Positions 5,166-26,904 of a stretch of 64,000 nucleotides of DNA are shown here, piece by piece. The notes under the pieces are model-generated. The model was not told where the DNA came from, did no database searches, and saw only the letters and a list, made by a program, of their open reading frames with translations. The position numbers were made by a program, and so were the translations under genes. Within the stretch, counting starts at the first letter, position 1, and every line of letters begins with the position of its first letter. The DNA comes from Patescibacteria group bacterium (GTDB lineage: Bacteria; Patescibacteriota; JABMPQ01; JAHIRA01): the NCBI GenBank assembly GCA_018818205.1, contig JAHISJ010000006.1:41817-105816 (forward strand), written 5' to 3'.

Positions 5166-5942
5166 ATGGCTCAGGAAAAAAATTCAGTGATGAATATTGT
5201 CTCGGTGCTTTTGATGATTGTGCTTATTTTTATTCTTGGTGCAGGGCTGGTTCTGTTTTTAGTTAAAGATTCTGTTAAAGTACAGCTTTCCGGCATTCCC
5301 GGTAAGGAAGAAGACAGAGGTATCACCGTTTCCGGAACCGGCACAGTAGAAGCAGTGCCTGACATTGCGTCGTTTACTGTAACGGTGAATTCCGAGGCAA
5401 GTACACTTGAAGCAGCAAGGGACGATGCAACAAATAGAATGAATCGTGTTATTTCCATGCTCAAAGATGAAGGTATAGATGATGAGGATCTGGTCACATC
5501 GTCTTATGACGTAAAGCCAAAATACAAATATGATGATAGTTATAATAGAGAGATAGATGGCTATACCGCAACACAAACGCTGACAGTGAAGGTACGAGAT
5601 ACAGAAAAAGCAGGAGAGCTTCTTACAAAAACCACAGAAAGTGGCGCAACTAAGGTTTCTAGTCTTTCATTTACCGTTGATGACAGAGAAAAATTGGAGG
5701 ATGAAGCACGAGTAAAAGCCATTGAAGATGCAAAACAGCGAGCAGAAATGATGGCAGGAGCTGTCGATCAAAAGGTAGGTGCGATTATTTCTATCTCGGA
5801 AGGATCAACGCCAGGCGGGTTTAATTATTCAGGGGTTGCAGCAAAAGAAACAGCGGATGCAGAAGCACCGCCAGAGCCACAAATTGAACCGGGCGAGCAA
5901 GAAATTGTAAAAACTGTTTCAGTGCGGTTTGAGATTTTGTAA
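5166..5942 (+). CDS. SIMPL/DUF541 (BP26/OMP28-like) periplasmic protein with N-terminal signal anchor
   Basis: 258 aa; N-terminal TM; GTGTVEAVPDIASFTVTV...YTATQTLTVKVRD...VKAIEDAKQRAEMMAGA pattern of the SIMPL/DUF541 family. Confidence 0.7.
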   Translation: MAQEKNSVMNIVSVLLMIVLIFILGAGLVLFLVKDSVKVQLSGIPGKEEDRGITVSGTGTVEAVPDIASFTVTVNSEASTLEAARDDATNRMNRVISMLKDEGIDDEDLVTSSYDVKPKYKYDDSYNREIDGYTATQTLTVKVRDTEKAGELLTKTTESGATKVSSLSFTVDDREKLEDEARVKAIEDAKQRAEMMAGAVDQKVGAIISISEGSTPGGFNYSGVAAKETADAEAPPEPQIEPGEQEIVKTVSVRFEIL

Positions 5943-8165: not shown

Positions 8166-11003
8166 ATGAAGAAACATCGAGTTAAAGCGCTTGTCGCGCT
8201 TGTTCTTGCAGGGGTTATGTCCTTTGCAACCTATTACTATGTGGTTCCAAATCAACCACAGGATTTAGATTTGAGTGCAAAAGAGGCTGAGGCACTCACG
8301 CAAAATTGGGATCAAGTGTCCCCAGTGGGAATTAATGCAAATGCAGCAAATATTGGTAAAGCCACAGATACTTTAACGGCTTCCGGAAGCTATCTTTATG
8401 CTACTGCAAGAAGGACCGATCCGATATTGCCATCACTTTGGCGATACGAATATGTTAATAGTCAAAATTCATGGACACAGATTACTGAGGATGCCTGTGG
8501 TGCTTCTGCTGAAGCAGAATATTTTACTGCATCGGTTGATTTTGAAGGTGATTACGTTGCAGCAGTTTTTGATGAAACAAATGGTGCTTCCGTTGTTAAA
8601 ATAAACAATGGGCAAGTAGGCTGTACTGCAGCAAATAAGTTGGGTACAACGGGGCTTGGGTATGGAAGTGACCTTTCAAACATTACTGACTTGTTTGTGC
8701 TCGAAGGTACTCTGTATGCCTTTGGTACTTTTGATACAGGTCATTCAGGAGCAGTCTTGCTTCAATATAACGAAGGATCAGGTACATGGTCGCATGTTGC
8801 ATCTCGTGAGGATGGACAGTTTGGCGCGACAACTACTGATTCTCAGCGGTGTGATGTTTCTGAAAGTCGAGCATACTGTACTTTTATGGGTAGCTCAGGT
8901 ATCCAGTTTTATACTGCAAGTGTAGGGAATATGCAAACTTGGGAGCAGCTAGGTCCACAAGGAAATAAAGATGGGTTTGGTGATCCGGGTAATGTACTTG
9001 CATGGGGGGTTGCTTTCACCTACGGGAAAGTATACGTTGGAACATCCCATCCTACAGGTGGGCAGCTTTGGCAGTATGTTGAAGGAAGTGCACATGACTC
9101 AATGAAGCAGATAAATCAGAATGGCTTTGGATCAGCAAATAACCAACATGTATGGGATATTGCAGAGCTGAATGGATACGTGTGGGCGACGGTATTTGAT
9201 ACCAATAGGAAGGCAAGCGTGTATCGTCTACAAGATCCGGATGCGAAAACTTGGGAATTGGCAAATATGCAAGGAGGGAGTTTTAAAGCAACAAATGAAC
9301 CTGTAATTGCGCTTACAAATTACAACAACAATATGTATGCGCTTGGGTATGACTATGATGGAGCTACAGACAGTTATATACAGGCGTATCGTTTTAAAGA
9401 CTATACCAAGCCTGAAGTATCAAACCGTGATCCCATGCCTTTATCTGGAGCAATCGTTGCACGTCCGGAAATGAAGTTTACCACAACTGATGATGAAACG
9501 GGAAACGATGTTGGAACTATTGCGGTAACTGTTACTGGTCAAACGAGTGGACAGCATGCTAATTTAACGATTGGCAAAACGCTTGCATCTGCTACTGAGA
9601 CAAACGCGCGAGTGTACAACTGGACTGTTCAATCGGACAAGGATTTTGCTTCAAGTGAGTTTGTCACTATTGATGTAACGATTTGTGACCGGTTTGTGTT
9701 GCAAAATTGTACAACCGATTCATGGGACTTTAGAGCACTTGCTATAGTTCCTGGTGGTCCAGGTGGTATTCTCAGGTTCAAAGCCCCAAGTGGTGTATGG
9801 CAAAATGACGACAAAACATATCAAGCTAAGGGAATGGTGCAGGTTGGTGTATTAGATGTGAGTGGCATCAAACAGGTCAGGTACACAGTTGATGGCTCAA
9901 ATCCAAATCAAAATTCAAAAGAACTTAAGAAGTGTGAGACGCTGTCATTTGTTAAGGATACTGTACTTAAGTATATTACGATTGATGACAGCGGAAACGT
10001 ATCTGAAGTATACTCGGTAAATATTCTTCTTCCAACGTCTACGGCAAATAAAACTCCCTTCATAGCAACAGCCCCCGGTAAAACAGGTGGTCCTGATGTC
10101 AAAGTATTTGACAAGAATGGAAATATGCAAGCTGAGTGGAATGCATTTGCCAAGGACTTACGCTGTGGTGCACGAGTAACTACCGGTGACATAAACGGTG
10201 ACGGTACTGATGAAGTCATTGTTGGATCCGGTGAAGGATGTACATCTCACGTGAGAGTATTCTCACCAAACGGTGTCGCAAAGCCTATTGATTACTTTCC
10301 GTTTGGCACTGACTCACGTACCGGTGCGGATGTTGCCGCAGGTGATGTTGACGGTGATGGTAAAGATGAAATTGCTATGATGCAATTTAGAAACGGTGAG
10401 ACTTGGGTAAAGGTGTATCGTTACAACAATCCTAGAGACATTGTTGGTGAGTGGCGAGCATACGAGGCTGGACAAGAATTTGGTGGAACTGTAGCTATGG
10501 GTGACTTTGACTACGATGGTAAAGCAGAGGTAGTAACCGGTGCCGGACCATCAGGCGATCCTCATATACGAATGTTTGAAGCAGACGGAGCGTTTAAAGG
10601 TGATCTCTACGCATTCCCACATTATGGTCTTGGATGGGAGCGTGAGGATGTCAGACGCGGCATAGACGTTTCAGCAGGCGACACTGATTTTGATGGTAAA
10701 GATGAAATTATGGCAACCGTTGCTGAAGGCGCACAAGCATACATGAAGGTCTACAGATGGAACAAGAGACGAAACATCATCATGGAAAACAAAGCATATG
10801 ACGCGCATGTTGGTACCAATGGATCACTCGGCGACGTTGACCAAGATGGATTTGCTGAGGCAGTCTCAGGTCCCGGATTTGGCGGCGGCCCTCAGGTGAG
10901 AGCGTTTGAAATGAACAAAGAACCTATAGAAAACACCGACTTCTTTGCCTACCTGAAATCATTCAGAGGTGGTACGGACATAGAGGTTGGGTATAGAAAG
11001 TAA
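8166..11003 (+). CDS. large secreted protein with C-terminal FG-GAP/VCBS-type beta-propeller repeats
   Basis: 945 aa; N-terminal signal peptide (KALVALVLAGVMSFA); >=5 repeats of GD(I/V/F/T)(N/D)GDG(T/K)DE(V/I) with intervening FG-like segments typical of FG-GAP repeats. Confidence 0.7.
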   Translation: MKKHRVKALVALVLAGVMSFATYYYVVPNQPQDLDLSAKEAEALTQNWDQVSPVGINANAANIGKATDTLTASGSYLYATARRTDPILPSLWRYEYVNSQNSWTQITEDACGASAEAEYFTASVDFEGDYVAAVFDETNGASVVKINNGQVGCTAANKLGTTGLGYGSDLSNITDLFVLEGTLYAFGTFDTGHSGAVLLQYNEGSGTWSHVASREDGQFGATTTDSQRCDVSESRAYCTFMGSSGIQFYTASVGNMQTWEQLGPQGNKDGFGDPGNVLAWGVAFTYGKVYVGTSHPTGGQLWQYVEGSAHDSMKQINQNGFGSANNQHVWDIAELNGYVWATVFDTNRKASVYRLQDPDAKTWELANMQGGSFKATNEPVIALTNYNNNMYALGYDYDGATDSYIQAYRFKDYTKPEVSNRDPMPLSGAIVARPEMKFTTTDDETGNDVGTIAVTVTGQTSGQHANLTIGKTLASATETNARVYNWTVQSDKDFASSEFVTIDVTICDRFVLQNCTTDSWDFRALAIVPGGPGGILRFKAPSGVWQNDDKTYQAKGMVQVGVLDVSGIKQVRYTVDGSNPNQNSKELKKCETLSFVKDTVLKYITIDDSGNVSEVYSVNILLPTSTANKTPFIATAPGKTGGPDVKVFDKNGNMQAEWNAFAKDLRCGARVTTGDINGDGTDEVIVGSGEGCTSHVRVFSPNGVAKPIDYFPFGTDSRTGADVAAGDVDGDGKDEIAMMQFRNGETWVKVYRYNNPRDIVGEWRAYEAGQEFGGTVAMGDFDYDGKAEVVTGAGPSGDPHIRMFEADGAFKGDLYAFPHYGLGWEREDVRRGIDVSAGDTDFDGKDEIMATVAEGAQAYMKVYRWNKRRNIIMENKAYDAHVGTNGSLGDVDQDGFAEAVSGPGFGGGPQVRAFEMNKEPIENTDFFAYLKSFRGGTDIEVGYRK

Positions 11004-11978: not shown

Positions 11979-13267
11979 GCGCGTACCACTTCTCCCTCAA
12001 ACCCCCAGTCACGTGCATTTGTTATTGCTACTCTAACAAACTGGCCGGTTTCTATAGGCTTTTTGGAGTTACATTTAACTGTTTTAAACGGTGCCGTTTT
12101 GCCAATATAGAGAGTGTTTTTTTCTTCGCGTGTTTTAGTGACAATTTGTTTGTCTATGAGTACGGTGACTGTTTCTCCAATCATCTTTTTATTGTTTTGT
12201 ATATTTTTGTTTTTTAAGATATCCAGTATCAAATGTTCACGTTCTTTTTTTCCCTGTGGCGAGACCGTTTCTTCCAGTAATGCTGCCTTAGTTCCCGGAC
12301 GGGGAGAAAATCTGCTAATGTACGCCATGTTAAAGTCGATTCGTTTACATAAATCGAGCGTATCATCAAAATCTTTTGTAGTCTCACCGGGGAATCCAAC
12401 TATGATATCAGTTGAGAGGGATACGTTTGGGATTGTAGCCTTAATATAGTCCGTGAGTTCAATGCAGTGATTATGGGTATAATGACGATTCATTGCTTTT
12501 AAAATAGTATCTGATCCTGATTGCACCGCAAAGTGAATATACGAACACAGTTTTTGTTCACGTGCTATGGTGTTGATCAATTCTTTTGACATGTCTTTAG
12601 GATGTGATGATACAAACCATATCCAAAAATCAGCATCTATTGCACAGATTCTTCTGAGCAGTTGTTCAAAATTAATATCTTCTTCAAGGTTTTTGCCGTA
12701 TGAGTTAACGTTTTGTCCAATGAGTGTAAACGCTTTATATCCCTTTTTCACCAGTTCATTGATTTCTTGAATGATGTTTTCTGATTTTCGTGATACTTCT
12801 CGACCTCGAGAATAGGGGACAACGCAGTATGAGCAAAAATTATCACAGCCGCTCATGATTGGGATATACGCATGGATTTTTGATTCAAGGCTAGGAGCAA
12901 TGTTTAAGTAGTCTGCAGAATCAATTGTTACTGCTTTAGTGGTTTGTTTTCCTATTATTTGTGGTAAATTCTCTAAATCTTTTATTTCAAAGCAAAACGA
13001 TGCCTTCTCGCTCAGCTTTTTTTTCTGTATGTTGACCATGCAGCCGGTAACACCAATGGTAGGACCATCTGACTTTTTATTGCGCGATAAAAAGGTAAAT
13101 ACGCGATCTTCAGCAGACTTTCTTATTGAGCAGGTGTTTAGAATAATCACATCAGCATCTTCTGGGCAGTCAACGTGAGTCATGGAAGCGTTTTGTAGGG
13201 TGGTGACAATGCGCTCAGAATCTGATTTGTTCATCTGACAGCCAAATGTTTTGATAAAGAAATTCAT
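11975..13267 (-). CDS. miaB: tRNA-i6A37 methylthiotransferase (radical SAM)
   Basis: 430 aa; N-terminal MTTase FFIKTFGCQMN, radical-SAM CDNFCSYCVVP, TRAM C-terminus; 4-nt overlap with miaA. Confidence 0.9.
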   Translation of the reverse strand: MNFFIKTFGCQMNKSDSERIVTTLQNASMTHVDCPEDADVIILNTCSIRKSAEDRVFTFLSRNKKSDGPTIGVTGCMVNIQKKKLSEKASFCFEIKDLENLPQIIGKQTTKAVTIDSADYLNIAPSLESKIHAYIPIMSGCDNFCSYCVVPYSRGREVSRKSENIIQEINELVKKGYKAFTLIGQNVNSYGKNLEEDINFEQLLRRICAIDADFWIWFVSSHPKDMSKELINTIAREQKLCSYIHFAVQSGSDTILKAMNRHYTHNHCIELTDYIKATIPNVSLSTDIIVGFPGETTKDFDDTLDLCKRIDFNMAYISRFSPRPGTKAALLEETVSPQGKKEREHLILDILKNKNIQNNKKMIGETVTVLIDKQIVTKTREEKNTLYIGKTAPFKTVKCNSKKPIETGQFVRVAITNARDWGFEGEVVRA

Positions 13268-13361: not shown

Positions 13362-14714
13362 ATGCCAAACTCAAATCAACCACAAAAAAAAGCACAGGCG
13401 CCGCAGGATTTGCCACTTTCCGGACAAGGAGGAGTGCCGCAGACGCCAGCGAGTCCACCTGAACCAAAGGTTCCCTCTGCAAGTGAACCTAATAAACAGC
13501 AACCTGAGCCGCAAAAACCAGTTGAGCCTACTATGAAACCACAGCCGCAGGCAGCAGCACCGGAACCCGCAGCTCAGCCTAAGCCGGCTGAAGCTCCGAT
13601 GCAGGGGAATGTACCCCCAGATAAACCTCTCATGGACGATGTATTAAAGCCAAAAGAAGCACCACGTCCTAATCCTTCTTTGCAAAAAGAGCCCCCCACT
13701 CCAAGCATGGAGCCAATTGAAGGTGTACCTCAGTCGTCTAATGAGGCTTCATTGCCACCTGAGCCGTTTGCTGAAAAAACACCAGAGGTACCTGAACCAG
13801 GAGCTCCCATTGCTGATGCCCCGCTTGAGGAAGTGCCGCAAGGAGGGAGTCCAGAGGACATAATGGAATCACTTTCAGATAAGACTATTGCGTCTTCTGA
13901 ACGCAAGGTTTTACTCTACAAAATCGTAACGGTTCTTATTGTGGTACTTATTTTGGGGGGATTGGTATTTGGTGGTGTTTTTGTGTACAACAGGTGGGTA
14001 AAACCGTCACTTGATAAAGATGTTGTTGAGGAGCAGGGTGGTGTTGTTCCATCTAATGAACAAGGTACTGGTACCGGGCAGGCGACTGATTTAGATAAAG
14101 ATGGTCTTCCAAATGACTGGGAGACAAACCATGGGTTAAATCCCAATGATCCCGCAGATGCGTTTGATGATCCTGATTTTGATCAGCTAAACAACAGTGA
14201 AGAGTATAAATATGGTTCCGATCCAGACAATCCAGATACGGATAGAGACGGGTTTAGAGATGGGATAGAAGTACAAAAAGGCTATAATCCAAGTGGAGAA
14301 GGCAAGATCGGAGACGGAAGCACTACCGATCAGGGGGGTGGGAGTGATTTTGCAGACGTTGCTGGTTCCTGGAAGGGTATAATGACTGGAGCACAGTATA
14401 CTGCAGATGATCTTGAGTTTACAATCAATAATGATGGCACCATTTTGGCCACGTATAATCTCAAACGTGCAGGTGGAGGTGACCCGGTTTTTAGTAGAGG
14501 TAAGGGTACATTTACGTATAGTAAGAGCACCCGCGTTTTTACTTCTGAGCTTTCTGTAAAAGGATTTTTTCAGCAGGATAGCGTTGATTATGCATTAAAG
14601 CTTAACGGGCAATCAAAGGGAGACGGATCGATTTCTGGAACATGGAATCTGGTTCCATCGCGTGAAGTGCCATGGCTTTTAAAGGATGGTGGAACGTTTA
14701 CGTTGAATCAATAA
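13362..14714 (+). CDS. type-II membrane protein with Pro-rich cytoplasmic tail and thrombospondin-type-3-like Ca-binding repeats (family member 1)
   Basis: 450 aa; PQ/PE-rich N-terminus, one TM (IVTVLIVVLILGGLVFGGVFV), then DLDKDGLPNDWE...DPDNPDTDRDGFRDGIEVQKGYNPSGEGKIGD; paralogous to 17397..18599 and 18623..19552. Confidence 0.6.
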   Translation: MPNSNQPQKKAQAPQDLPLSGQGGVPQTPASPPEPKVPSASEPNKQQPEPQKPVEPTMKPQPQAAAPEPAAQPKPAEAPMQGNVPPDKPLMDDVLKPKEAPRPNPSLQKEPPTPSMEPIEGVPQSSNEASLPPEPFAEKTPEVPEPGAPIADAPLEEVPQGGSPEDIMESLSDKTIASSERKVLLYKIVTVLIVVLILGGLVFGGVFVYNRWVKPSLDKDVVEEQGGVVPSNEQGTGTGQATDLDKDGLPNDWETNHGLNPNDPADAFDDPDFDQLNNSEEYKYGSDPDNPDTDRDGFRDGIEVQKGYNPSGEGKIGDGSTTDQGGGSDFADVAGSWKGIMTGAQYTADDLEFTINNDGTILATYNLKRAGGGDPVFSRGKGTFTYSKSTRVFTSELSVKGFFQQDSVDYALKLNGQSKGDGSISGTWNLVPSREVPWLLKDGGTFTLNQ

Positions 14715-14735
14715 CATTTGTACGAATATCAATAT

Positions 14736-14760
14736 AAAAACGCCCTTGCGGGCGTTTTTT
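14736..14760 (+). terminator. intrinsic terminator (AACGCCC-ttgc-GGGCGTT + T6)
   Basis: perfect GC hairpin and T-run 22 nt after stop of 13362..14714. Confidence 0.7.
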
Positions 14761-14763
14761 CGT

Positions 14764-14846
14764 TTGTTATCGTAGGGGCGCGTCTATTGTACGGACGTGC
14801 CTATGTATCGTACGGGTGCGCCGCGGCGCACCCGTACGATAACAAT
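14764..14846. repeat. GC-rich nested palindromic element (36-nt perfect palindrome inside 11-bp outer inverted repeat)
   Basis: TATCGTACGGGTGCGCCGCGGCGCACCCGTACGATA (14806-14841) is a perfect palindrome; outer arms TTGTTATCGTA (14764-14774)/TACGATAACAA (14835-14845); no T-run on either strand; shares CGTACGGG(C/T)GC core with element at 11059-11084. Confidence 0.5.
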
Positions 14847-14847
14847 G

Positions 14848-16059
14848 TTATGAAATAACGTTCAATTCTTTACCGACCTTCTCAAATGCGGCAATACCGG
14901 TGTCTAAGTCTTCTTTGGTATGCGATGCGGAAGGCATGACTCGGATTCGTGCGGTTCCTTTTGGTACCATAGGAAACTTAATGGCCGTTGCGTATATGTT
15001 GTTTTCAAAGAGTTTAGTGCTAAAATCCTTTGCGGTGTTTTCATCACCAATCATGACGGGGGTAATAGGGCTTTCGCTTTTACCGGTGTCAAACCCAAGG
15101 GCCTTAAGCTCTTTTTTGAGATACTCAGCATTTTCCCACAGTTTTTTCACTAGTTCGTCCGACTCTTCCAAAGTGTTTACTGATGCAATAAGTGCAGCTG
15201 CATCAGGAACTGAGAGGCCGTTTGAGAAAAGAAACTGTCGTCCTTTTTGGCGGTAATACTCAATTAACTCTTTTTTCCCGGTAATAAATCCACCCATAAC
15301 GCCAAATGCTTTTGACATAGTGCCAACTTCAATATCTACTTCACCATCGAGGTTAAAATGGTTAACAATACCGCGACCATGATCACCTAAAACTCCCTCG
15401 CCATGAGCGTCATCTACCATCGTAAATGCATCGTACTTTTTGGCGAGCTCGACTATGTGTGGCAGGGGAGCAAGGTCACCGTCCATAGAAAAAACTCCAT
15501 CAGTAATAATGAGGATTCTCTTTTGACCACCATCTGACCGTAATTCCTTTTGAGCTTCTTTTGCTTCTTCTAGCCTTTTAGAGAGATCATCCATATTTGC
15601 ATGAGCATAGATGAACTTTGTTTTAACTCCTGAAAGTCGTACACCATCAATGATTGATGCATGGTTGAGCTCGTCAGAAATAACAATATCTTCTTTACCA
15701 ATGATGGTTTGTATTGCACAAAGATTAGCCATGTAGCCGCCGGTAAGGGCAAGAGCTGCCTCAGCGTGTTTAAAGTGTGCAAGCTTCTCTTCCAGTTCAA
15801 TATGAAGAGCGTTTGTACCGGAGAGTGCTCGTACTGAACCGGTACCAACACCGTATTTTTCTACCGCTTCTAGCACTGCCTTTTTTAAATTGTCATGTGC
15901 AGCAAGCCCGAGGTAATTATTTGAACAGAGATTAAGCTTTTTCTCTCCATCAATAGTAAGCCATGCACCCTGGCTCGACTCGATAACTTTAATGGTGTTA
16001 AAGAGTCCGTCTTCTTTCATTTGCTCTATTTCTTGAGCAAACACGTGGTATTTATCCAT
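14848..16059 (-). CDS. kbl: 2-amino-3-ketobutyrate CoA ligase (glycine C-acetyltransferase), class-II aminotransferase
   Basis: [11 protein letters not shown]...[12 protein letters not shown]...TMSKAFG (PLP lysine) typical of Kbl/BioF family; adjacent to tdh; start set to ATG 16059 (MDKYHV...) because the upstream 49 codons of the ORF-track call run through a MITE-like repeat. Confidence 0.8.
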
Positions 16060-16094
16060 AATTTTTTGTGAGTTCTTAATACTATTTTTTATTC

Positions 16095-16201
16095 TGTCAT
16101 CCCGGACAGTCTTTCCTGAGACTGATTCGGGATCTCCTTGCTTACAGACTAAACCACACGATTCCGGATAGTCACTTAAGAAAGTGGATTCCGGGATGAC
16201 A
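16095..16201. mobile_element. MITE-like element copy 1 (107 bp, perfect 12-bp TIRs TGTCATCCCGGA/TCCGGGATGACA)
   Basis: terminal inverted repeats plus internal hairpin modules (CAGTCTTTCCTGAGACTG; CACTTAAGAAAGTG) and a central module TTCGGGATCTCCTTGCTTACAGACT shared with copy at 47225-47333; located in the tdh-kbl intergenic region. Confidence 0.6.
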
Positions 16202-16221
16202 ATCACTATTTGAGTGTGTTT

Positions 16222-17238
16222 TTACGGCGTAAGAATTATTTTACCTGCTTCACCACTCTTCATAATCTCCATAGCTTTTTCAAATTCCTCGAGTTTAAGT
16301 TCATGTGTGATAATTTTACCTAGATCCACTTTTTTGGAAAGCAGAAGATCAGAGGTTCTGTGCCACGTGTCCCAAATCATGCGACCAAAAATGCTCTTTA
16401 TGGTGAGCTCTTTATTAATCATATACTTACCCCAATCAATACATATTTTTTCCTTTGGGATACCAAAAGCTATGATTGTACCGCACAGCCTTGCAGCCTC
16501 AAACGCTTCTTCTGTTGCTTGCTTGTTTCCTGACATTTCAAGGACAATATCAAATGACCCCAATCTCTCCTTGGAAACAGCATCAAATGTTTCATCACAC
16601 CCCATTTCTTTTCCGAGGTTTTGTCTAAATTTGCTGGGGTCAATGCCGGTTACCACATGAGCACCGTATGCTTTGGCAACTGCAGCAGCACACAGTCCTG
16701 TTGGGCCAAGCCCATATATCAAGACTCGTTTTCCGGGAACGTTAGCAGTGGTAACAACATTAACCGCATTTCCGAGTGGTTCTTGTACGCTCATTTGGTC
16801 TACGGGGATCGTGGGGTCGTTTTTCCAGGTTGTTGCAATGGGGAGTGTTGCGTATTCGGCAAATGCACCATCTCTGCTGATACCAAAGAGTTTCATATTT
16901 TCACAAATATGCGCATTGCCGACGCCACATTGATAGCATTGCCCGCAATAAATATGTGTTTCTGAAGATACGAGATCACCTATTTTAAGGTCTCTTGGGT
17001 CATCAGAATTTATTTCCAGTATTTCTCCTACAACTTCATGACCAATCACAATTGGCGGTGTAATATGTCCCTTTGCCCAGTCACCCCAGTCGTAAATACC
17101 AATATCGGTACCACAGATGGATGCCTTAATGACTTTAATAAGTACTTCGTCTTTTTTGGCCTCAGGAACGGGAACATCTGTGATAGAAACACCTGGTTCA
17201 GGTTTGTTTTTTACCACAGCTCGCATTGTGTCTTTCAT
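16222..17238 (-). CDS. tdh: L-threonine 3-dehydrogenase (zinc-dependent MDR alcohol dehydrogenase family)
   Basis: 338 aa; GHEVVGEI and CGTDIGIY Zn-ADH motifs, NAD GxGxxG (GLGPTGL); operonic with kbl (threonine -> glycine + acetyl-CoA). Confidence 0.8.
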   Translation of the reverse strand: MKDTMRAVVKNKPEPGVSITDVPVPEAKKDEVLIKVIKASICGTDIGIYDWGDWAKGHITPPIVIGHEVVGEILEINSDDPRDLKIGDLVSSETHIYCGQCYQCGVGNAHICENMKLFGISRDGAFAEYATLPIATTWKNDPTIPVDQMSVQEPLGNAVNVVTTANVPGKRVLIYGLGPTGLCAAAVAKAYGAHVVTGIDPSKFRQNLGKEMGCDETFDAVSKERLGSFDIVLEMSGNKQATEEAFEAARLCGTIIAFGIPKEKICIDWGKYMINKELTIKSIFGRMIWDTWHRTSDLLLSKKVDLGKIITHELKLEEFEKAMEIMKSGEAGKIILTP

Positions 17239-17316
17239 ATGATTTTGTTAAATAGTACACGGTAAGTGTAACGTGTTTTGTGTATCGTTGAAAGGGAAAC
17301 TGTGAACTATTTGGAG

Positions 17317-17345
17317 TTGACTCGGTTCATAAAATATGCTATAAT
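17317..17345 (+). promoter_or_regulatory. near-consensus sigma70 promoter TTGACT-N17-(TGc)TATAAT
   Basis: TTGACT 17317-17322, 17-nt spacer, extended -10 TGCTATAAT 17337-17345, ~50 nt upstream of ATG 17397. Confidence 0.6.
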
Positions 17346-17396
17346 GAGAGTGAACATATCTGGATTTTCTAGTTCAAGACAAAATAACAATGTAAT

Positions 17397-18599
17397 ATGA
17401 ATACTATACAGAGATCAGACTCTGATGTTTCTGGTCGTGAGTCTTCTAAATCTGAAGAAAATCAAACAGCTTCTAATCCTGAAAAGGTAGATTTTGTGAA
17501 AACACAAGCAGAAGATTTTCATGTTGAAACCATGCCACGTGCAAGCGGTGGTGGTGGAGGAGGCGTCAAAAACAAAAAGAAGCGAGTAGTTGTAGTAGTT
17601 ATTATTCTTGCCGTTTTTATTTTAATACTGAGCGGTGTTTTTGCTTATCTCTATAGAGAACAACTCGGAATTTCTACTCTTTTGGGTACAAAAGTAACTC
17701 CCGTGGTAGAGACAGAAACGAAGGTTACCAAAGAGGTTACTGGTCCTGATGATCAAATGCATATTTATGAAGAACTTACTAAGCGCGTTGCACTTCTTGA
17801 AAAAGGAAAAGATGGTGACACCGTGGTTCTTCTTGAAGGAAAAATTACTAAAATTGAGACTTATCTCAAACAAACTGACACTGATGAGGATGGAATCTCT
17901 GACTATGAAGAAATTGTTGATCATGAAACGGACCCTGATAATAAAGACACTGACGGTGACGGTTTTAATGACGGAGATGAAATAAATAATGGGTACAATC
18001 CCAATGGTGAAGGCGAAATTGGGGACGATACTTCTGATGTACAAGATGAATCGACAGATAATGATCAAGAAATTGTCGATGAACCAGCTGACGATACAGA
18101 TGGTCAAGACGTCCCTGATGATACAGACACTAATGGTTTACATGAGAAAGGCTTTAACTCAGCGGTCCCAGGTGACTACGTAGGTCGTTTTGCCTTGACA
18201 GATGTGGAAGTTTCTGGTAATGATATAAAGCTTACCATAAATGAAATTGGTGAGGTTTCAGGGAGTTTTACCTTTGAATACGATGGTTCCGCGTATCGCA
18301 CCGAGTTTAATGGTGCGCTCGAGGTAGATGACTCAGGTGAACAGTACTATACGAGCTTGGAGGCAAAAACGATATCTGGATCTAATCAAGATGATCTAAA
18401 AGTAGATATGTTTTTGACCTTTAACGCAGACAAGAGTGAGTTAAATGGGGTAATGCAGTTTTTAGACAGTGACTATGCATTCCTCAACGATCAGAAGGGT
18501 GAAGTATTCTTAAATCAAGGGGAAATAGCGTTAAACGGTATTTCCATTACTACTGAGGATGCAGGTGGAAACGAGGCGACAACTGTATTGCTCCAGTAA
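17397..18599 (+). CDS. type-II membrane protein with thrombospondin-type-3-like Ca-binding repeats (family member 2)
   Basis: 400 aa; Gly-run then TM (VVVVVIILAVFILILSGVFAYL); TDTDEDGISDYEE...DPDNKDTDGDGFNDGDEINNGYNPNGEGEIGD; acidic linker; C-terminal beta-rich domain alignable to that of 13362..14714. Confidence 0.6.
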   Translation: MNTIQRSDSDVSGRESSKSEENQTASNPEKVDFVKTQAEDFHVETMPRASGGGGGGVKNKKKRVVVVVIILAVFILILSGVFAYLYREQLGISTLLGTKVTPVVETETKVTKEVTGPDDQMHIYEELTKRVALLEKGKDGDTVVLLEGKITKIETYLKQTDTDEDGISDYEEIVDHETDPDNKDTDGDGFNDGDEINNGYNPNGEGEIGDDTSDVQDESTDNDQEIVDEPADDTDGQDVPDDTDTNGLHEKGFNSAVPGDYVGRFALTDVEVSGNDIKLTINEIGEVSGSFTFEYDGSAYRTEFNGALEVDDSGEQYYTSLEAKTISGSNQDDLKVDMFLTFNADKSELNGVMQFLDSDYAFLNDQKGEVFLNQGEIALNGISITTEDAGGNEATTVLLQ

Positions 18600-18622
18600 A
18601 TTTTTTGTGAAAAATAGCAAAT

Positions 18623-19552
18623 ATGATTGATATTATTCCCGCAGCAGCCTTTGACTCAGGAATGCATGCCAAGGAGATGGATGAGCAAGGCAAAAGCGCG
18701 GATCAAAAATTAGAGGTGACCCTTAAAGAAGAGAAGAATCTTACTTCTCCTCCTTTGGATACTGAAAAAAAAGGAGAAATAAAACCGCCAAAGAAGAAAC
18801 GTCCTTGGGGTGCGTATGTTGGGTTTATTGCGTTGATCCTTGTTTTGATTGCAGGCGTTTTAGTCGGATATATTCAGCGAGATACCATCGCTAAACTTTT
18901 TAGTACAAGCGATGCGGGTTTTACTGACGATGAAAAAAAGTCCTTTGGCTATCTTGATGAAGATAATGACGGGTTAACGACCCTTGAAGAAATGGCGTCA
19001 GGAACGCTCGTGCTTGAGCCTGACACAGATGGCGATGAACTCCCTGATGGATATGAAGTTCAGTTTGGCTTAAACCCTCTTGATCCTGCCGATGCGCTGT
19101 ATGATCAAGACAAAGACGATCTTAAGAATATAGACGAATACTATTACGAGACAAATATCAGTGACCCCGATACTGATAATGATGGGTTTAAGGACGGTAG
19201 TGAAGTAAAAGATGGATACAACCCCAAAGGGACAGGTGCACTTAAAAAGCCACAAAAGGATGGGGTTCCCGTTGAGCGGGTTTCTAGCGAAGGTATGATT
19301 AAGATTCTCACCGGAGAATTTAATCCAGAGTTTATCAGAATCAAAGAAGGGGATAGTCTTACGTTTGTTAATGAAGATACCGTGACTCACTTTGTGACAG
19401 GACCGGAAATTGAAACTGATGCTATCCAACCGGGATCATCCTTTACCATATCCTTTCAAAAAGAAGGTGTGTATGAGTTTTATGATCGTGATGATGCTCG
19501 GTATAAAGGTAAAATTATTGTTGAAAAAATGGTGCAAAACGATGAGGAGTAA
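18623..19552 (+). CDS. type-II membrane protein with thrombospondin-type-3-like Ca-binding repeats and cupredoxin-like C-terminal domain lacking Cys ligand (family member 3)
   Basis: 309 aa; TM (VGFIALILVLIAGVLVGYI); LDEDNDGLTTLEE...DPDTDNDGFKDGSEVKDGYNPKGTGALKKP; C-terminal ~90 aa with plastocyanin-like strand pattern (no Cys). Confidence 0.55.
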   Translation: MIDIIPAAAFDSGMHAKEMDEQGKSADQKLEVTLKEEKNLTSPPLDTEKKGEIKPPKKKRPWGAYVGFIALILVLIAGVLVGYIQRDTIAKLFSTSDAGFTDDEKKSFGYLDEDNDGLTTLEEMASGTLVLEPDTDGDELPDGYEVQFGLNPLDPADALYDQDKDDLKNIDEYYYETNISDPDTDNDGFKDGSEVKDGYNPKGTGALKKPQKDGVPVERVSSEGMIKILTGEFNPEFIRIKEGDSLTFVNEDTVTHFVTGPEIETDAIQPGSSFTISFQKEGVYEFYDRDDARYKGKIIVEKMVQNDEE

Positions 19553-20827
19553 TCACTCTGAAGCGGGAAATTTCTTTAAAATTTCACCAACAAAATAGAG
19601 CGAGCCGGTCACAATGACCGGTTTTTTGTTATGTGTTATTTGAGCCAAACACTCATTCATGGTACACGAGAGTAGCCTAGGAAACTCTTTTTGAATGTCG
19701 TTTGATTTTAATTGATTATGTATGCCAGTGTCTACAAGAAGTATGTCTCGAGTAATGGTGAGTAAGAGGGTTATGTTTTTCTTGTACTCTTTATTTTTTT
19801 TTGAAGAAAAAAAGATAGTAGGTTCTTGTATGTCTAGATCACGTAGTGTCTTAATGAGCGTTTTTATGCCTGCGGGATTGTGCGCACCGTCAATCAAAAC
19901 AAGCGGATCTTTTTTTATTATCTGACATCTGCCGGGCCAAGATGTATGTGCAAGGGCCCTTCTCACACTCTTAGTTTTTGGTTTATTGGAGAAATATTTT
20001 TTGTGTACGAGCGTTTCAAATGCATACAGGGCAAGTGCGGCATTACAGGCTTGATGTGCTCCAAGAAGTGAGAGTTTGAGATTTTTGTATGTGTTTATTT
20101 TTGAAGTGTAGTCAAACCGTGTGTATTTCTGAGTAACGTTACGCATATGTACATAAGTGCTTTTTAGGATATATAATGATGCATTTTTCTTATCACACAT
20201 CTTCTGTATGACGTTTTGTATCTCTGGCTGATTATGCATGAACACGCACGAATTTTTTTTAATAATCCCTGCTTTTTCCCGAGCTATTTTTTCAAGCGTA
20301 TCTCCTAAATAGTCTTGATGGTCTAAGCTTACCTGGGTAATGATTTCAGCAAAAGAGGGGATCACGTTTGTGGCGTCAAGTCTGCCTCCAAGACCGGTCT
20401 CAATAACGCTTACATCTACGTTTTTTTCTTTAAAATACAAAATCGCTGCAGTAGTAAGTGCTTCAAAGAGAGTAAGCTCTACATTGTTCTTTTGTCTTGT
20501 TTTATAAATCTCACTAAGGAGTGCGAGCAGTTTTTTTTCACTGATTTTTTTGCGGTCTATTTGAATTCGCTCAGTGTAGGAAATGAGGTGTGGTGAGGTA
20601 ACAAGTCCCGTTTTAAGCCCATGTTCTATGAGCAAGCTGTGCAACACTGCTGCTGTTGATCCTTTGCCATTAGTACCTGCTATGTGGATTGTTTTAAGGT
20701 CCTTTTCCGGATTTTTGAGGTGTTTTAAAAAGCGAGTGATGTTCTTGAGTGACACATCACAAGCGCTTACGTGCTCCATGCCAAAAGCATCTTCAAAGTC
20801 TGTAAAGGATCGTAATGTAGCTGGCAT
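19553..20827 (-). CDS. folC: folylpolyglutamate synthase/dihydrofolate synthase (Mur ligase family)
   Basis: 424 aa; IHIAGTNGKGST P-loop, Mur-ligase middle/C domains; 4-nt gap after thrS stop. Confidence 0.8.
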   Translation of the reverse strand: MPATLRSFTDFEDAFGMEHVSACDVSLKNITRFLKHLKNPEKDLKTIHIAGTNGKGSTAAVLHSLLIEHGLKTGLVTSPHLISYTERIQIDRKKISEKKLLALLSEIYKTRQKNNVELTLFEALTTAAILYFKEKNVDVSVIETGLGGRLDATNVIPSFAEIITQVSLDHQDYLGDTLEKIAREKAGIIKKNSCVFMHNQPEIQNVIQKMCDKKNASLYILKSTYVHMRNVTQKYTRFDYTSKINTYKNLKLSLLGAHQACNAALALYAFETLVHKKYFSNKPKTKSVRRALAHTSWPGRCQIIKKDPLVLIDGAHNPAGIKTLIKTLRDLDIQEPTIFFSSKKNKEYKKNITLLLTITRDILLVDTGIHNQLKSNDIQKEFPRLLSCTMNECLAQITHNKKPVIVTGSLYFVGEILKKFPASE

Positions 20828-22863: not shown

Positions 22864-24009
22864 CTATTTGACGAGAATTTCAATATTGCTGTCGCTTGAG
22901 GGCACTTTGGTTACCCAAAAAGGAGAGTAGGCGATGTCTACTGAGTCTACTTCCGGGAACTGTTTGTAGTAGGCAACCAAGTCGCCGTAATTTCTGCCTT
23001 GCAGCGGTGCTTTCTCGAATGCTTTTGACGGGATTTTGTTTATTGTTGCGGCTGATGCAGAGATGGTGACAATGGCACTTCTTTTTTCTTCGTCAATAGA
23101 GGCAAGTGAGTAGGATAAATCATCAGTGTTGAAGGATATTATTTCTTTTGCTTCGCTTATTTGTTTTTGGATTTTTTCTTCAGCGATTGTCTTCATTTGG
23201 GCTGTGTTGAAGGATACAAGAGTCAATTTTATTTTTTCTGTTACCTCAAACGCAGGGGTAATATCATCCTCTTTTACTTTTGGTGTAGCGTTAATAATTT
23301 CATAGTGTGTAGTTTTGGGGACGATAATTTCACTTGGAGGGAGCGTTTCTTTGATTTTGGCAATCTCTTCTTGGATGATTTGCGTTGCCACGTCTTCTTT
23401 AGCCTTCTCGATCGTCTCTGCAGTAACCACAAAGTCTTCAACACGTCCTCCGGTCATGGGAGTGTTGCTTTCTGCATAGATTAACTCTTGCCAGTTTGCC
23501 CAGAGCTTAACGATGACAAAATGTGTTGGCGCCACGTTGCCTTGTGCGCCTTTTTCTGCTGCGGTAACGGGAATATCAATTTTTCCTTTTGCGGGTACTT
23601 GTGCCCATGTATCAATTTTGAAAAGAACGCCACTATCACTTAGTAGTTGTGTTTTTTGCTTGAGTGGCTGAGGTTCGCTTCTGTTGTTGTAGATAGTGAC
23701 CGTTCCTTTTGCATACGAATCGACCTCCTTTTTTTCTACCGCATCAAACGTTTTGGTAGCGTCGATTGTTTTTTCAATAATTTGTCCTTTTACCGCATTG
23801 AACGCGGTGAGGTTTCCATCGGCGTCAGGGGAGATGGTGACATTGAGTGACGCATTGGTTGTATCTTCTTTTGGGTGAAGTGTTATTTCTGCTTTTGATA
23901 TGGTTGTATGTATTACAAAAGCGATAAGTACCAGCGATGCAATGATAAATAGGATAAGGTAGGGCTTATAGGAGGGGCCTTGTTTTATTTTTCCAAGATC
24001 AACACTCAT
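22864..24009 (-). CDS. hypothetical membrane-anchored (N-in, C-out) protein
   Basis: 381 aa; single N-terminal TM (YLILFIIASLVLIAFVI), large T/K/E-rich extracytoplasmic domain; 4-nt overlap with upstream HExxH gene. Confidence 0.5.
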   Translation of the reverse strand: MSVDLGKIKQGPSYKPYLILFIIASLVLIAFVIHTTISKAEITLHPKEDTTNASLNVTISPDADGNLTAFNAVKGQIIEKTIDATKTFDAVEKKEVDSYAKGTVTIYNNRSEPQPLKQKTQLLSDSGVLFKIDTWAQVPAKGKIDIPVTAAEKGAQGNVAPTHFVIVKLWANWQELIYAESNTPMTGGRVEDFVVTAETIEKAKEDVATQIIQEEIAKIKETLPPSEIIVPKTTHYEIINATPKVKEDDITPAFEVTEKIKLTLVSFNTAQMKTIAEEKIQKQISEAKEIISFNTDDLSYSLASIDEEKRSAIVTISASAATINKIPSKAFEKAPLQGRNYGDLVAYYKQFPEVDSVDIAYSPFWVTKVPSSDSNIEILVK

Positions 24010-24876: not shown

Positions 24877-26904
24877 TTATCTTTGATCTTCACTATAAAC
24901 GACTTTTTTCATTTCTTCTTCTACATCTTTTCCTCCGATTACTACTTGATCGCGTCCGGAAACCTTAGCTTTTTTAAGTGCAACGTTTGCTCTTTCAAAC
25001 ATTTTTTTGGTGGTTGGTTCATTTTTTTCATCTCTGTACCCCTTGATATCTGCAAGACCCATTGAAGCAGTTACTTTTTTTGTGGTTTCTTCATCTACAG
25101 AAAACTTTGTAGCACGCAATACCTCCATAAATCTCTCTTCAATACGTTCCTTGGCACGTTTTGCATCCATACCTGGCAGGAGAATAACAAATTCCTCACC
25201 ACCTTGTCTTCCGGGAGTACCGTTTACGTGGTGTCGTCTTCCGGAGCCTACCACATCTAAATCTCCGCGTTTTCTTCTTTGATCTTCGCCGTTAAATTCT
25301 CCTTCATCTGTCCTAAAAATTTCCTTAAGAATTCTTCCAAGTTGTCTTAATACTTTATCACCGACTTTATGACCATATGCGTCGTTTAAATCTTTAAAAT
25401 GGTCTAGGTCAAGAATAGCTATTGTTAGATTTTCTCCGCTTTTAGCTGTCTTGTAGAAGAGCTTGTGGAATTCTTTTCCGATAATCTCACGGTTTTTAAG
25501 TCCGGTAAGTGAATCGGTGTTTGCCTTTTCACCAAATATGTACGCTTCTACCTCGGCAAATTGAGCATATTGCCACCATATTTTTTCTGTTCCAGAAATA
25601 GCCATTTCATCATTTTGCAGTCTTTCTGAAATTTCTTTTTCCAATTTAGACACTTCCGGAAACTCTCCGTAATCAAGGGGGTCTTGAACCAGTTCAGCAA
25701 AATCTAGCAAGTCAGCCCCACTTAATGCGAGCTCTGGATTGGGTTCAATGTCTTTCTTTTTTTCGATTTGTTCCTTGATTTCAGTTGATGTAACAAAGGT
25801 TCGTGGTTCTTGAAATGTTTCAAACTCTCCAGATTCTCTTGCGGTTTTTAGGACGAGGTCTTCTTTTTTTCTTTTTGTAAGCTCCACTTTACGTCTTCTT
25901 TGTACATCATCCGAGTATATTCTTGAGCCATCACCAAATTCACGTTTACCATCTTCTGCTTCAAATCCATGTTTTTTAACGTCAACGGCGGCTTGTTCTG
26001 CTTCATCTAAAAGGTGTTCAGCATTGTCTTTGGGCGTCAAGTTTTCTTGGACACGTAGTACGGTAATGCCTGCGCTTGCAGTGACCCCAACACTGTCAAC
26101 TGTCTCTTCACCTTCGCTATTTAGTATTTTTTCGGTTGCAAAGATGTGTTTTGGAAGCTCTTTAACATTTTCAGTTTGTCTTTTTAGCGTGGTATCTATG
26201 GTTCTAATAGCTTCGAGTACTTGTTCCGCTCTATTTTGAAGCATACGTTCCAAATTTTCTTCAGCTTGTTTTTTTTCGTCTGGAGAAAAATCGTTTTCAG
26301 TAAAAATAAAGACGAGTTCCTCGCCTCTATCGTGCTTTCTTGCTGCCATACCGGTTCCCTCAAATGCTCTACAGATTTGTCCAACGTGTCTCAGCACATC
26401 ATCACCACCGCTATAACCATATACCTCGTTAAAGAGCTTGAACTTATCAATATCAATATGAATTGCACCCATCTTTGAGCCTTTTCTAATTTCAGAAATC
26501 ATGTATTCTCTAAGTGCGCCGTCTCGTTTAAGCTGGGTAAGGCCATCTACCGTAAGAGCAAACTGTTCAGCACGACCCTCCGCGCGGTTAACCGCAGCGA
26601 CTGCTTTTGCAATAGTTATTCTTTTTTCTATGGATTCTGAATCTTCCCCTGGAATAGTTTTTAAAAAAGCGCTACGGATTTCTCTGGCACTGCTTCCTTG
26701 TTCTTGTAGCGCGTTAAATTGTTCTAGGTGGTCAGTATTTTGTTCTTTGTCGAGCGTACGAATTGCGTCCTCTCTGTCCTCAATTTCTGCAAGTCGTTCA
26801 AGTTGTGTAACAACATGGACTTTGTGTAGCTCAGTAGGAGTTTCTACTTTCTCCATCTCAGAAATCGATTGAAACATTCTTTCTTTTTTTGAATTTTCAG
26901 CCAT
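24877..26904 (-). CDS. tandem GGDEF-domain protein: N-terminal degenerate GGDEF-like domain (RGEEL) + C-terminal diguanylate cyclase domain (GGEEF)
   Basis: 675 aa soluble protein; domain 1 ~aa130-300 with DIDKFKLFNEVYGYSGGDDVL...RGEELVFIF; domain 2 ~aa470-620 with DLDHFKDLNDAYGHKVGDKVL...RQGGEEFVILLPG and an R/K-rich insertion. Confidence 0.8.
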   Translation of the reverse strand: MAENSKKERMFQSISEMEKVETPTELHKVHVVTQLERLAEIEDREDAIRTLDKEQNTDHLEQFNALQEQGSSAREIRSAFLKTIPGEDSESIEKRITIAKAVAAVNRAEGRAEQFALTVDGLTQLKRDGALREYMISEIRKGSKMGAIHIDIDKFKLFNEVYGYSGGDDVLRHVGQICRAFEGTGMAARKHDRGEELVFIFTENDFSPDEKKQAEENLERMLQNRAEQVLEAIRTIDTTLKRQTENVKELPKHIFATEKILNSEGEETVDSVGVTASAGITVLRVQENLTPKDNAEHLLDEAEQAAVDVKKHGFEAEDGKREFGDGSRIYSDDVQRRRKVELTKRKKEDLVLKTARESGEFETFQEPRTFVTSTEIKEQIEKKKDIEPNPELALSGADLLDFAELVQDPLDYGEFPEVSKLEKEISERLQNDEMAISGTEKIWWQYAQFAEVEAYIFGEKANTDSLTGLKNREIIGKEFHKLFYKTAKSGENLTIAILDLDHFKDLNDAYGHKVGDKVLRQLGRILKEIFRTDEGEFNGEDQRRKRGDLDVVGSGRRHHVNGTPGRQGGEEFVILLPGMDAKRAKERIEERFMEVLRATKFSVDEETTKKVTASMGLADIKGYRDEKNEPTTKKMFERANVALKKAKVSGRDQVVIGGKDVEEEMKKVVYSEDQR

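Follow-up and report, generated by a model that had tools for sequence, protein, structure and literature searches.

Three genes in a 64,000-nucleotide stretch of a Patescibacteria group bacterium genome (contig JAHISJ010000006.1; hereafter the window) encode membrane-anchored proteins with thrombospondin type 3 (TSP3) repeats, and our results identify them as a long-standing, conserved set of three genes, the products of which carry interchangeable small heads, rather than as a recent expansion. The genes, labelled M1 (13362–14714), M2 (17397–18599) and M3 (18623–19552) and all on the forward strand, are present as open reading frames (ORFs) at the coordinates given in an initial annotation of this DNA, which was made from the sequence alone. 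We consider it moderately likely that their products are co-functioning envelope proteins with the N-terminus inside and the C-terminus outside the cell (N-in/C-out) and with calcium-stiffened stalks, encoded by an old cluster in a clade of the Patescibacteria. Directly established are the architecture of the three proteins, the identity of their repeats, the homology of the barrel heads of M1 and M2, the loss of copper ligands in the cupredoxin-like head of M3, the conserved clustering of the genes and a natural fusion.

The kinds of domain involved were already known and annotated. In the NCBI records, which all give 'Patescibacteria group bacterium' as the source organism, M1 is named 'hypothetical protein KKH43_00875', M2 'thrombospondin type 3 repeat-containing protein' and M3 'cupredoxin domain-containing protein'. 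New are the three-gene module, the barrel family, the natural fusion and a motif in the cytoplasmic tails; in the literature on TSP3 repeats in the Candidate Phyla Radiation (CPR)/Patescibacteria no account of these proteins was found. Patescibacteria have tiny genomes, depend on other cells and possess envelope proteins that are mostly uncharacterised. With the present results, three loosely similar ORFs become a defined, conserved three-gene envelope module linked by a natural fusion, which offers concrete targets for calcium-binding assays, multimer modelling and cryo-electron tomography of CPR envelopes, and of which the practical impact will be modest until a function is shown. Related proteins are referred to below by P-numbers (e.g., P0180) and loci in related genomes by L-numbers (e.g., L085).

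Protein architecture and the TSP3 stalk

M1 (450 amino acids) consists of a Pro-rich cytoplasmic tail, a transmembrane helix, three TSP3 repeats and a C-terminal barrel; M2 (400 amino acids) of a basic/Gly tail, a transmembrane helix, a helical segment, two TSP3 repeats, an acidic linker and a barrel; and M3 (309 amino acids) of a tail with an invariant N-terminal M.DI.P, a transmembrane helix, four TSP3 repeats and a cupredoxin-like domain. Pairwise BLASTP comparisons relate M1 to M3 with an E-value of 8e-22, M1 to M2 with 1e-12 and M2 to M3 with 1e-11. None of the three proteins contains a Cys residue, and the predicted ectodomains are only ~220–315 residues long. Hydropathy analysis finds a single, strongly hydrophobic segment after the long N-terminal tail of each protein (Kyte-Doolittle 2.8–3.4), in agreement with the earlier description of the trio as signal-anchored with one transmembrane helix. 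This helix is placed at residues ~184–209 of M1 (13911–13988), where it is also predicted as a helix by AlphaFold2 (AF2), at residues ~64–86 of M2 (17586–17654), with KNKKKR just upstream, and at residues ~66–88 of M3 (18818–18886), with KPPKKKR just upstream. Since the net charge around the helix of M2 and M3 is +4 to +5 upstream and 0 downstream, an N-in/C-out orientation is predicted for these two proteins.

The acidic repeats had been described as TSP3-like, with unrelated low complexity as the alternative, and the former description is borne out. The bacterial Pfam family TSP3_bac (PF18884; gathering cutoff 25 bits) gives the three proteins scores just short of that cutoff, 24.3, 22.5 and 23.5 bits (E from 3e-5 to 1e-4), and it matches all five M1 orthologues (best E 2.8e-8) and all eight M3 orthologues (best E 8.5e-11); because of these matches in orthologues, we consider the repeats genuine and not chance low complexity. 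In the relatives P0180, P0160 and P0159 the scores amount to 38–48 bits (42–48 for the first two). The eukaryotic Pfam family TSP_3, to which the initial annotation had pointed, gave no match to the trio at E ≤ 1; it was the bacterial family that matched instead. Cores of the form DxDxDGxxDxxE lie at residues 243, 270 and 292 of M1, 161 and 184 of M2, and 112, 134, 161 and 183 of M3, in a tandem arrangement with a spacing of ~22–27 residues and an ending G-x-(D/N)-P, and their positions are invariant among orthologues. The two motif copies per protein reported earlier are therefore correct for M2, which has two cores, but not for M1 and M3, which have three and four. According to the profile matches and core positions, the stalks extend over 14088–14309 in M1, 17877–18020 in M2 and 18956–19243 in M3, all on the forward strand, with the final motifs GYNPSGEGKI, GYNPNGEGEI and GYNPKGTGAL, respectively. 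The conserved block singled out before (DPD..GYNPxGxG) is indeed present in all three: translated in six frames, the window contains GYNPxGxG just three times, with one copy per trio ORF. The block itself turns out to be no more than a single full TSP3_bac repeat of 22 residues.

When species-representative genomes were scanned with the alignment of M3, at least 405 confirmed TSP3 loci were recovered across Bacteria and Archaea, among them Shewanella, Nitrospiraceae, Hydrogenedentota, Heimdallarchaeota and many others. The scan patterns fell inside the generic TSP3 stretch, so this number reflects the ubiquity of the repeat and is not a census of the trio; the matches cover only residues ~106–216 of M3, at 45–54% identity, which is the level found among the trio members themselves. 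Because at least 405 loci are as similar to the trio block as this, the TSP3 block alone does not define a special family, and the D-rich block, which had been taken to define one, does not set the trio apart from stretches in Shewanella, Nitrospiraceae and Heimdallarchaeota. A stalk ending in GYNPxGxGxL is fused to sortase in six proteins (P0009, P0012, P0014, P0017, P0080 and P0095) and to a YkuD L,D-transpeptidase in two (P0096 and P0116), and the same type of stalk is joined to OmpA and PKD domains in still other proteins. Judged by these fusion partners, the TSP3 stalk behaves as a generic extracytoplasmic spacer, and the sortase and YkuD fusions suggest a widespread 'Ca-stalk' design that would position cell-wall enzymes. 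The stalks of the sortase and YkuD proteins are transmembrane- or signal-anchored.

The closest counterparts of this stalk are found in bacterial TSP3 proteins such as those of the OmpA family, which share with the trio the tandem 22-residue repeat DxDxDGxxDxxE...G(T/Y)(D/N)P and the extracytoplasmic position of the repeats, linking a membrane anchor to a globular domain. They differ in that the anchor of the trio is an N-terminal transmembrane helix following a long cytoplasmic tail and not a beta-barrel or a lipid, and in that the trio proteins bear a new barrel or a copper-less cupredoxin as head where OmpA has a peptidoglycan-binding domain. The same ligand spacing, DxDxDGxxDxxD/E, occurs in the repeats of eukaryotic thrombospondins, for which a structure of the type 3 repeats has reportedly been available since 2004, as indicated by the title of Kvansakul 2004, which is cited in 10.1101/2023.11.21.568195. 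Thrombospondins and cartilage oligomeric matrix protein (COMP) moreover have a helical or coiled-coil segment, calcium-binding type 3 repeats and a beta head in the same order as the M2-type proteins. However, the trio lacks Cys pairs and has only two to four repeats, its calycin-like barrel head is not L-lectin-like, and it is membrane-anchored, whereas thrombospondins are secreted. The coiled coil of the M2-type proteins is a low-confidence prediction. The likeness is to be read as analogy and not as family membership. The predicted helical, possibly coiled-coil segment of M2 lies at residues ~117–159 (17745–17873); in the AF2 construct it appears as helices H62-81 and H85-104 with a predicted local distance difference test (pLDDT) score below 50, and it has counterparts in P0159, P0160, P0180 and the second stalk gene of L087.

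A further similarity concerns domain 1' of the clostridial binary toxin B components and anthrax protective antigen (Binary_toxB, PF03495), in which DTDRDGIPDEWE of C2-II (2j42) aligns with DLDKDGLPNDWE...NP...D of M1 (E 0.007). Binary_toxB matches four of the five M1 orthologues (best E 1.7e-5), with scores below the 25-bit cutoff (17.8 bits for M1 and 24.7 for the best relative); M1 contains no toxin domains and the similarity is confined to the calcium-binding loops. Based on the analogy with the TSP3 repeats of thrombospondin and OmpA and on the similarity to this calcium-binding domain, we infer that the DxDxDGxxDxxE loops of the trio bind Ca2+.

Although the cytoplasmic tails do not align among themselves, they share a short motif, acidic-phi-phi-(x)-P(K). 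It takes the form D(L/V)IPK or D(D/E)VLKPKEAPR in M1-type proteins, KVDFVxP in M2 orthologues (residues ~30–37 of M2; 17484–17507) and M.DI.P, starting the protein and with the motif at residue 3, in M3-type proteins (residues 1–6 of M3; 18623–18640). The motif was encountered in 20 of 36 tails, compared to 0.9 ± 0.9 (maximum 5) over 2000 composition-preserving shuffles, a count that is inflated by orthology, and the M.DI.P N-terminus is confined to the gene in the M3 position or bearing the cupredoxin (eight CPR loci). Among the other single-transmembrane proteins of the window that were scanned, none has a convincing copy. These patterns hint at a docking partner in the cytoplasm. In the disordered, Pro-rich tail of M1 (residues 1–183; 13362–13910) the orthologue alignment reveals two conserved islands, D(D/E)VLKPKEAPR at residues ~92–103 (13635–13670) and the membrane-adjacent SLSD..(V/I)..SERK.

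Head domains and their exchange

The C-terminal domains of M1 (residues 329–450; 14346–14711) and M2 (residues ~254–374; 18156–18518) are both predicted by AF2 to form a barrel of eight consecutive antiparallel strands in up-and-down order, with pLDDT values of 80–93 and 76–86, respectively, in models that rest on shallow alignments. Foldseek searches matched the barrel of M1 to those of avidin, nitrobindin, nitrophorin and PsbO and that of M2 to lipocalins and nitrophorins; the structures common to both are of the calycin type and include nitrophorins 7 and 2, avidins and rhizavidin, and also nitrobindin and retinol-binding protein. With calycins (lipocalins, avidins, nitrobindin, nitrophorins) the barrels share the eight-stranded up-and-down antiparallel fold and the size of ~120 residues, but no significant Pfam sequence match of the lipocalin type was obtained and no C-terminal helix is predicted in M1.

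The initial annotation regarded the C-terminal beta domains of the three proteins as all different, which does not apply to M1 and M2. A narrow profile-profile comparison of the two barrels was marginal (E 0.009, probability 4%), with a score of 20.7 that was reached by none of 200 column shuffles (12.2 ± 2.3, maximum 20.2) and that also exceeded the reversed and cupredoxin controls. A broad profile built from 29 such domains, with M1 as a seed sequence, aligned with the M2 barrel alignment over 114 columns (hhalign probability 97.1%, E 5.8e-11), and M2 of the window matched it over profile positions 5–120 with 36.8 bits (hmmsearch); the M3 control gave no match to this profile. Only after these shuffling controls and this broader profile did we accept that, at the level of sequence profiles, the barrels of M1 and M2 are homologous.

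In a HMMER search of 1.84 billion cluster representatives the M1 barrel profile gave 29 hits, about 23–25 of which were judged to be true, full-length, single-domain matches. All true matches inspected possess the layout of tail, transmembrane helix, TSP3 repeats and barrel. Six of the 29 hits, P0171, P0173, P0178, P0179, P0181 and P0182, were rejected as members, being long FG-GAP, MBG or InlB B-repeat proteins in which weak partial matches had been summed. Pfam holds no family for the barrel (GH43_C reached 19.9 bits at a cutoff of 23.4 and Lipocalin_4 an E-value of 0.11), M2-type barrels gave no relevant Pfam match, and no relative of the barrel profile was found among PDB sequences (best E 0.37). 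At its first strand, the consensus of the family shows a G-x-W-x-G motif. The barrel is a previously undescribed calycin-like domain that merits its own family model.

The head of M3 (residues 226–300; 19298–19522) is a cupredoxin-like domain, as had been noted, together with the lack of the Cys ligand. It matches Cupredoxin_1 (PF13473) with 32.8 bits at a gathering cutoff of 27, seven of the eight M3 orthologues match this family too, and the family profile retrieves from the PDB a nitrite reductase, by way of its extra cupredoxin domain (9cck, E 4.6e-11), plastocyanin (1bxu, E 1.8e-8) and amicyanins. Fold homology with the blue copper proteins (plastocyanin, amicyanin) is thus clear, and the first His ligand is conserved. 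However, from the copper-binding set His-Cys-His-Met this first His is all that M3 retains: the C-x-x-H-x-x-x-x-M loop aligns to D-R-D...Y, the Cys position is taken by Asp in L086 and in all seven orthologues that possess the cupredoxin and by Ser in P0180, and the Cys, the second His and the Met are absent in all orthologues. M3 also differs from the blue copper proteins by its tether, consisting of a transmembrane helix and a TSP3 stalk, and the TIGR plastocyanin and amicyanin models score only 24–27 bits against cutoffs of 88–110. The results caution against the annotation of such cupredoxin domains as plastocyanin-type electron carriers.

The heads are not fixed to one type of stalk. P0180 (463 amino acids), to which M2 aligns with an E-value of 5e-22, combines an M2-type N-terminal half, a barrel (219–347) and a Cupredoxin_1 domain (368–458, 37.9 bits) in a single chain. 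In P0159 and P0160 an M2-type stalk is followed by three barrels in tandem, and the second stalk gene of L087 has an M2-type stalk with a cupredoxin-like head. Headless versions are formed by the M2-type genes of L086 and L088, the third stalk gene of L087, the M3-type gene of L085 and P0008. Among the proteins compared, tail, transmembrane helix and TSP3 repeats are the constant part, and the heads behave as modules that change places between the three subunits. Because of this modularity and exchange, proteins that work in the same place provide the best fit.

Gene order, proposed function and competing explanations

Three related loci (L002, L003 and L004) share the gene order of the window, i.e., miaA-miaB / M1 / kbl / tdh / M2 / M3 / folC / thrS, with trio orthologues that are 30–57% identical to the window proteins. 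In L085, L086 (GCA_030603885.1) and L088 the genes miaB, M1, M2 and M3 are contiguous and co-oriented, without kbl-tdh in between, and in L087 (GCA_964395185.1) three stalk genes stand beside miaB, likewise with no kbl-tdh between them. M2 and M3, which are 23 bp apart in the window, are separated by 3–58 bp in every locus examined that has both. Given this order in 30–57%-identical relatives and the contiguous cluster in more distant genomes, the paralogues must be old, contrary to the lineage-specific expansion that had been proposed. The bracketing of kbl-tdh by the trio, also put forward earlier, carries no functional meaning either, as it is missing from L085–L088; judging from this comparison of loci, kbl-tdh and folC seem to have been inserted within the subclade of the window.

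Our favoured explanation, that of co-functioning envelope proteins, would work as follows. Each DxDxDGxxDxxE loop would chelate Ca2+, as in thrombospondin, the TSP3 region of OmpA and the calcium-binding domain of binary toxins. An Asp-rich segment that is otherwise disordered would thereby become a stiff and compact spacer, which would keep the heads close to the membrane at a set height, beneath the wall or S-layer. The barrel may offer a pocket that binds a partner or a small ligand, the cupredoxin-like domain may serve as a non-redox binding module, and the three proteins probably act together, either co-localised or in a complex. The topology, the calcium binding, the joint action and the ligand binding of the trio are what we infer from the features described above.

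Several observations weigh against this explanation. The TSP3_bac scores of the window proteins themselves are just below the Pfam cutoff, the AF2 models of the stalk (M1 and M2 constructs) have pLDDT values below 50 so that a Ca-bound geometry is not visible in them, and the Foldseek matches of the barrels are weak (E 5e-4 to 0.03, TM-score ≤0.55). The structure of the OmpA TSP3 region reportedly depends on an intra-repeat disulfide for calcium binding, going by the title of Dai 2017, which is cited in 10.1101/2023.11.21.568195, and the trio is free of Cys. The charge bias around the transmembrane helix of M1 is ambiguous (+2 upstream and +1 downstream), and the headless copies weaken any function centred on the heads. 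Clustering in small, stable genomes may, finally, persist by descent without a functional link.

This last point leads to the alternative that the proteins have no joint function, being independent TSP3-stalk exoproteins that resemble each other solely through a ubiquitous, easily shuffled repeat cassette and are adjacent by descent, which we consider rather unlikely. The TSP3 stretch is indeed equally similar to that of unrelated proteins across Bacteria and Archaea, the head content varies among lineages, and the flanking miaA, miaB, thrS, dnaE and gatB are syntenic as well, as would be expected if the whole region is simply stable. However, independence does not account readily for a fusion protein in which both a barrel and a cupredoxin are joined to an M2-type stalk, for the exchange of heads between stalk types within the cluster or for the consistently tight spacing of M2 and M3. 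Moreover, M1 and M2 share a rare barrel that was found in our search only in proteins with the tail-transmembrane-TSP3 layout.

A lineage-specific expansion of calcium-binding adhesins, with which the ultra-small cell would fasten itself to a host or partner cell, as suggested by the initial annotation, is in our opinion unlikely. The organism is a member of the Patescibacteria, which have been described as epibiotic (PMC12931201), a large FG-GAP surface protein is encoded nearby (8166–11003) and is syntenic in relatives, and TSP3 repeats like those of the trio are found in CglD and MtsD of Myxococcus, which function in gliding, adhesion and cohesion. However, the corresponding NCBIfam models (NF033765 and NF047639) match weakly and in the repeat region only, with 12–21 bits against equivalog cutoffs of 400 and 800, and VWA and other CglD/MtsD domains are absent, so that the trio proteins are not members of these families. 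The conserved order in divergent relatives contradicts an expansion, headless versions exist, and the ectodomains, with their cytoplasmic-membrane anchor, appear to have no wall-spanning region. Given such short ectodomains and a stalk that also bears the wall enzymes sortase and YkuD, a membrane-proximal role in the envelope is more likely than host adhesion.

A more far-reaching version of joint action, which we regard as distinctly unlikely, is that the trio represents a transmembrane coupling module specific to Patescibacteria. Three bitopic subunits would assemble through the coiled coil of M2 and the Ca-loaded stalks, the heads would capture a ligand or partner, and the motifs in the cytoplasmic tails would dock a cytoplasmic machine. 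Such an arrangement recalls that of PilN, of which the N-terminal INLLP peptide docks PilM.

It seems very improbable that M3 is a membrane-tethered, plastocyanin-like blue-copper electron carrier to which M1 and M2 are accessory. The score above the Cupredoxin_1 cutoff and the profile matches to 9cck, plastocyanin and amicyanin would agree with this, and an electron-carrier role has been assigned to proteins with a single cupredoxin in some Patescibacteria (PMC12931201). M3 is, however, wholly Cys-free and of the copper ligands retains the first His alone, with the Cys replaced as described above, and the head as a whole is absent in P0008 and in the gene of L085. Least credible is a functional tie between the trio and the flanking threonine catabolism genes (tdh-kbl), e.g., by shared regulation from the 158-bp intergenic region from which M2-M3 and tdh-kbl diverge, an arrangement that is retained in L001–L004 with thrS nearby, since it is largely refuted by the side-by-side trio genes without tdh or kbl in L085, L086, L087 and L088, and since the extra small ORFs between tdh and kbl in L002–L004 give this position the look of an insertion-prone spot.

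Putative transcription signals and neighbouring genes

The two genes that split the trio in the window, kbl (14848–16206) and tdh (16222–17238), are on the reverse strand and are not part of the system. The longest ORF for kbl begins with GTG and encodes 452 amino acids; its orthologues have 402–403, and the ATG at 16059 (MDKYHVF...), which yields 403 amino acids, is likely the true start. The initial annotation had placed the adjacent M2 and M3 behind a near-consensus promoter, and this promoter is confirmed as the best site of the region: a sigma-70-like element on the forward strand (17317–17345; TTGACT-17-TATAAT with an extended -10 TG, 11 of 12 matches) within the 158-bp divergent region that M2-M3 have in common with tdh. 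The total of promoter-like sites in this region does not exceed the shuffled expectation. Between the convergent M1 and kbl lies a strong hairpin resembling an intrinsic terminator (14736–14759, forward strand), with a 10-bp stem containing five GC pairs and a T-tract. The stop of M3 (ending at 19552) directly abuts that of the convergent folC (19553), and a second terminator-like hairpin (19602–19624, forward strand), located within the 3' end of folC, possibly marks the end of the M2-M3 transcript. An Rfam scan returned two tRNAs only.

In the close relative L002 a fourth TSP3 gene (12197–13105) is situated between folC and thrS, encoding a protein of 302 amino acids with a transmembrane helix, a helical segment, two TSP3 repeats and a Ser/Thr/Asp/Gly-rich tail. 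As folC and thrS are only 3 bp apart in the window, the copy number evidently varies among close relatives.

The FG-GAP protein mentioned above (8166–11003, forward strand; 945 amino acids) has an N-terminal hydrophobic anchor, CHB_HEX_C_1/Fn3_assoc and C-terminal FG-GAP repeats, which are integrin-alpha-like and contain DxDxDG. Homologues are encoded upstream of miaA/miaB in L002 and L088, and a gene combining FG-GAP and SNase follows the trio in L087. The FG-GAP protein is thus a second predicted calcium-binding surface protein with a conserved place in the vicinity of the trio. A SIMPL/DUF541 protein (5166–5942, forward strand; 196 bits), encoded upstream of tmk and gatB, likewise has an N-terminal anchor, and the order tmk-gatB-...-miaA-miaB-trio recurs in L085, L086 and L088.

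Further downstream, a 675-amino-acid protein on the reverse strand (24877–26904) contains GGDEF domains, has a weak match to the palm-2 domain of Cas10/Cmr2 and is syntenic in L002 and L003. Its gene adjoins an ORF of 165 amino acids and a membrane-anchored ORF of 381 amino acids (22864–24009); orthologues of the latter match Baseplate_J, and the copy in the window has no Pfam match at E ≤ 1e-3. Two adjacent paralogues on the forward strand (49707–50780 and 50806–52041) have the N- and C-terminal domains of DUF3048 after an N-terminal transmembrane helix, and the second of these also possesses a cytoplasmic tail of 60 residues, which makes them another tandem pair of anchored exoproteins.

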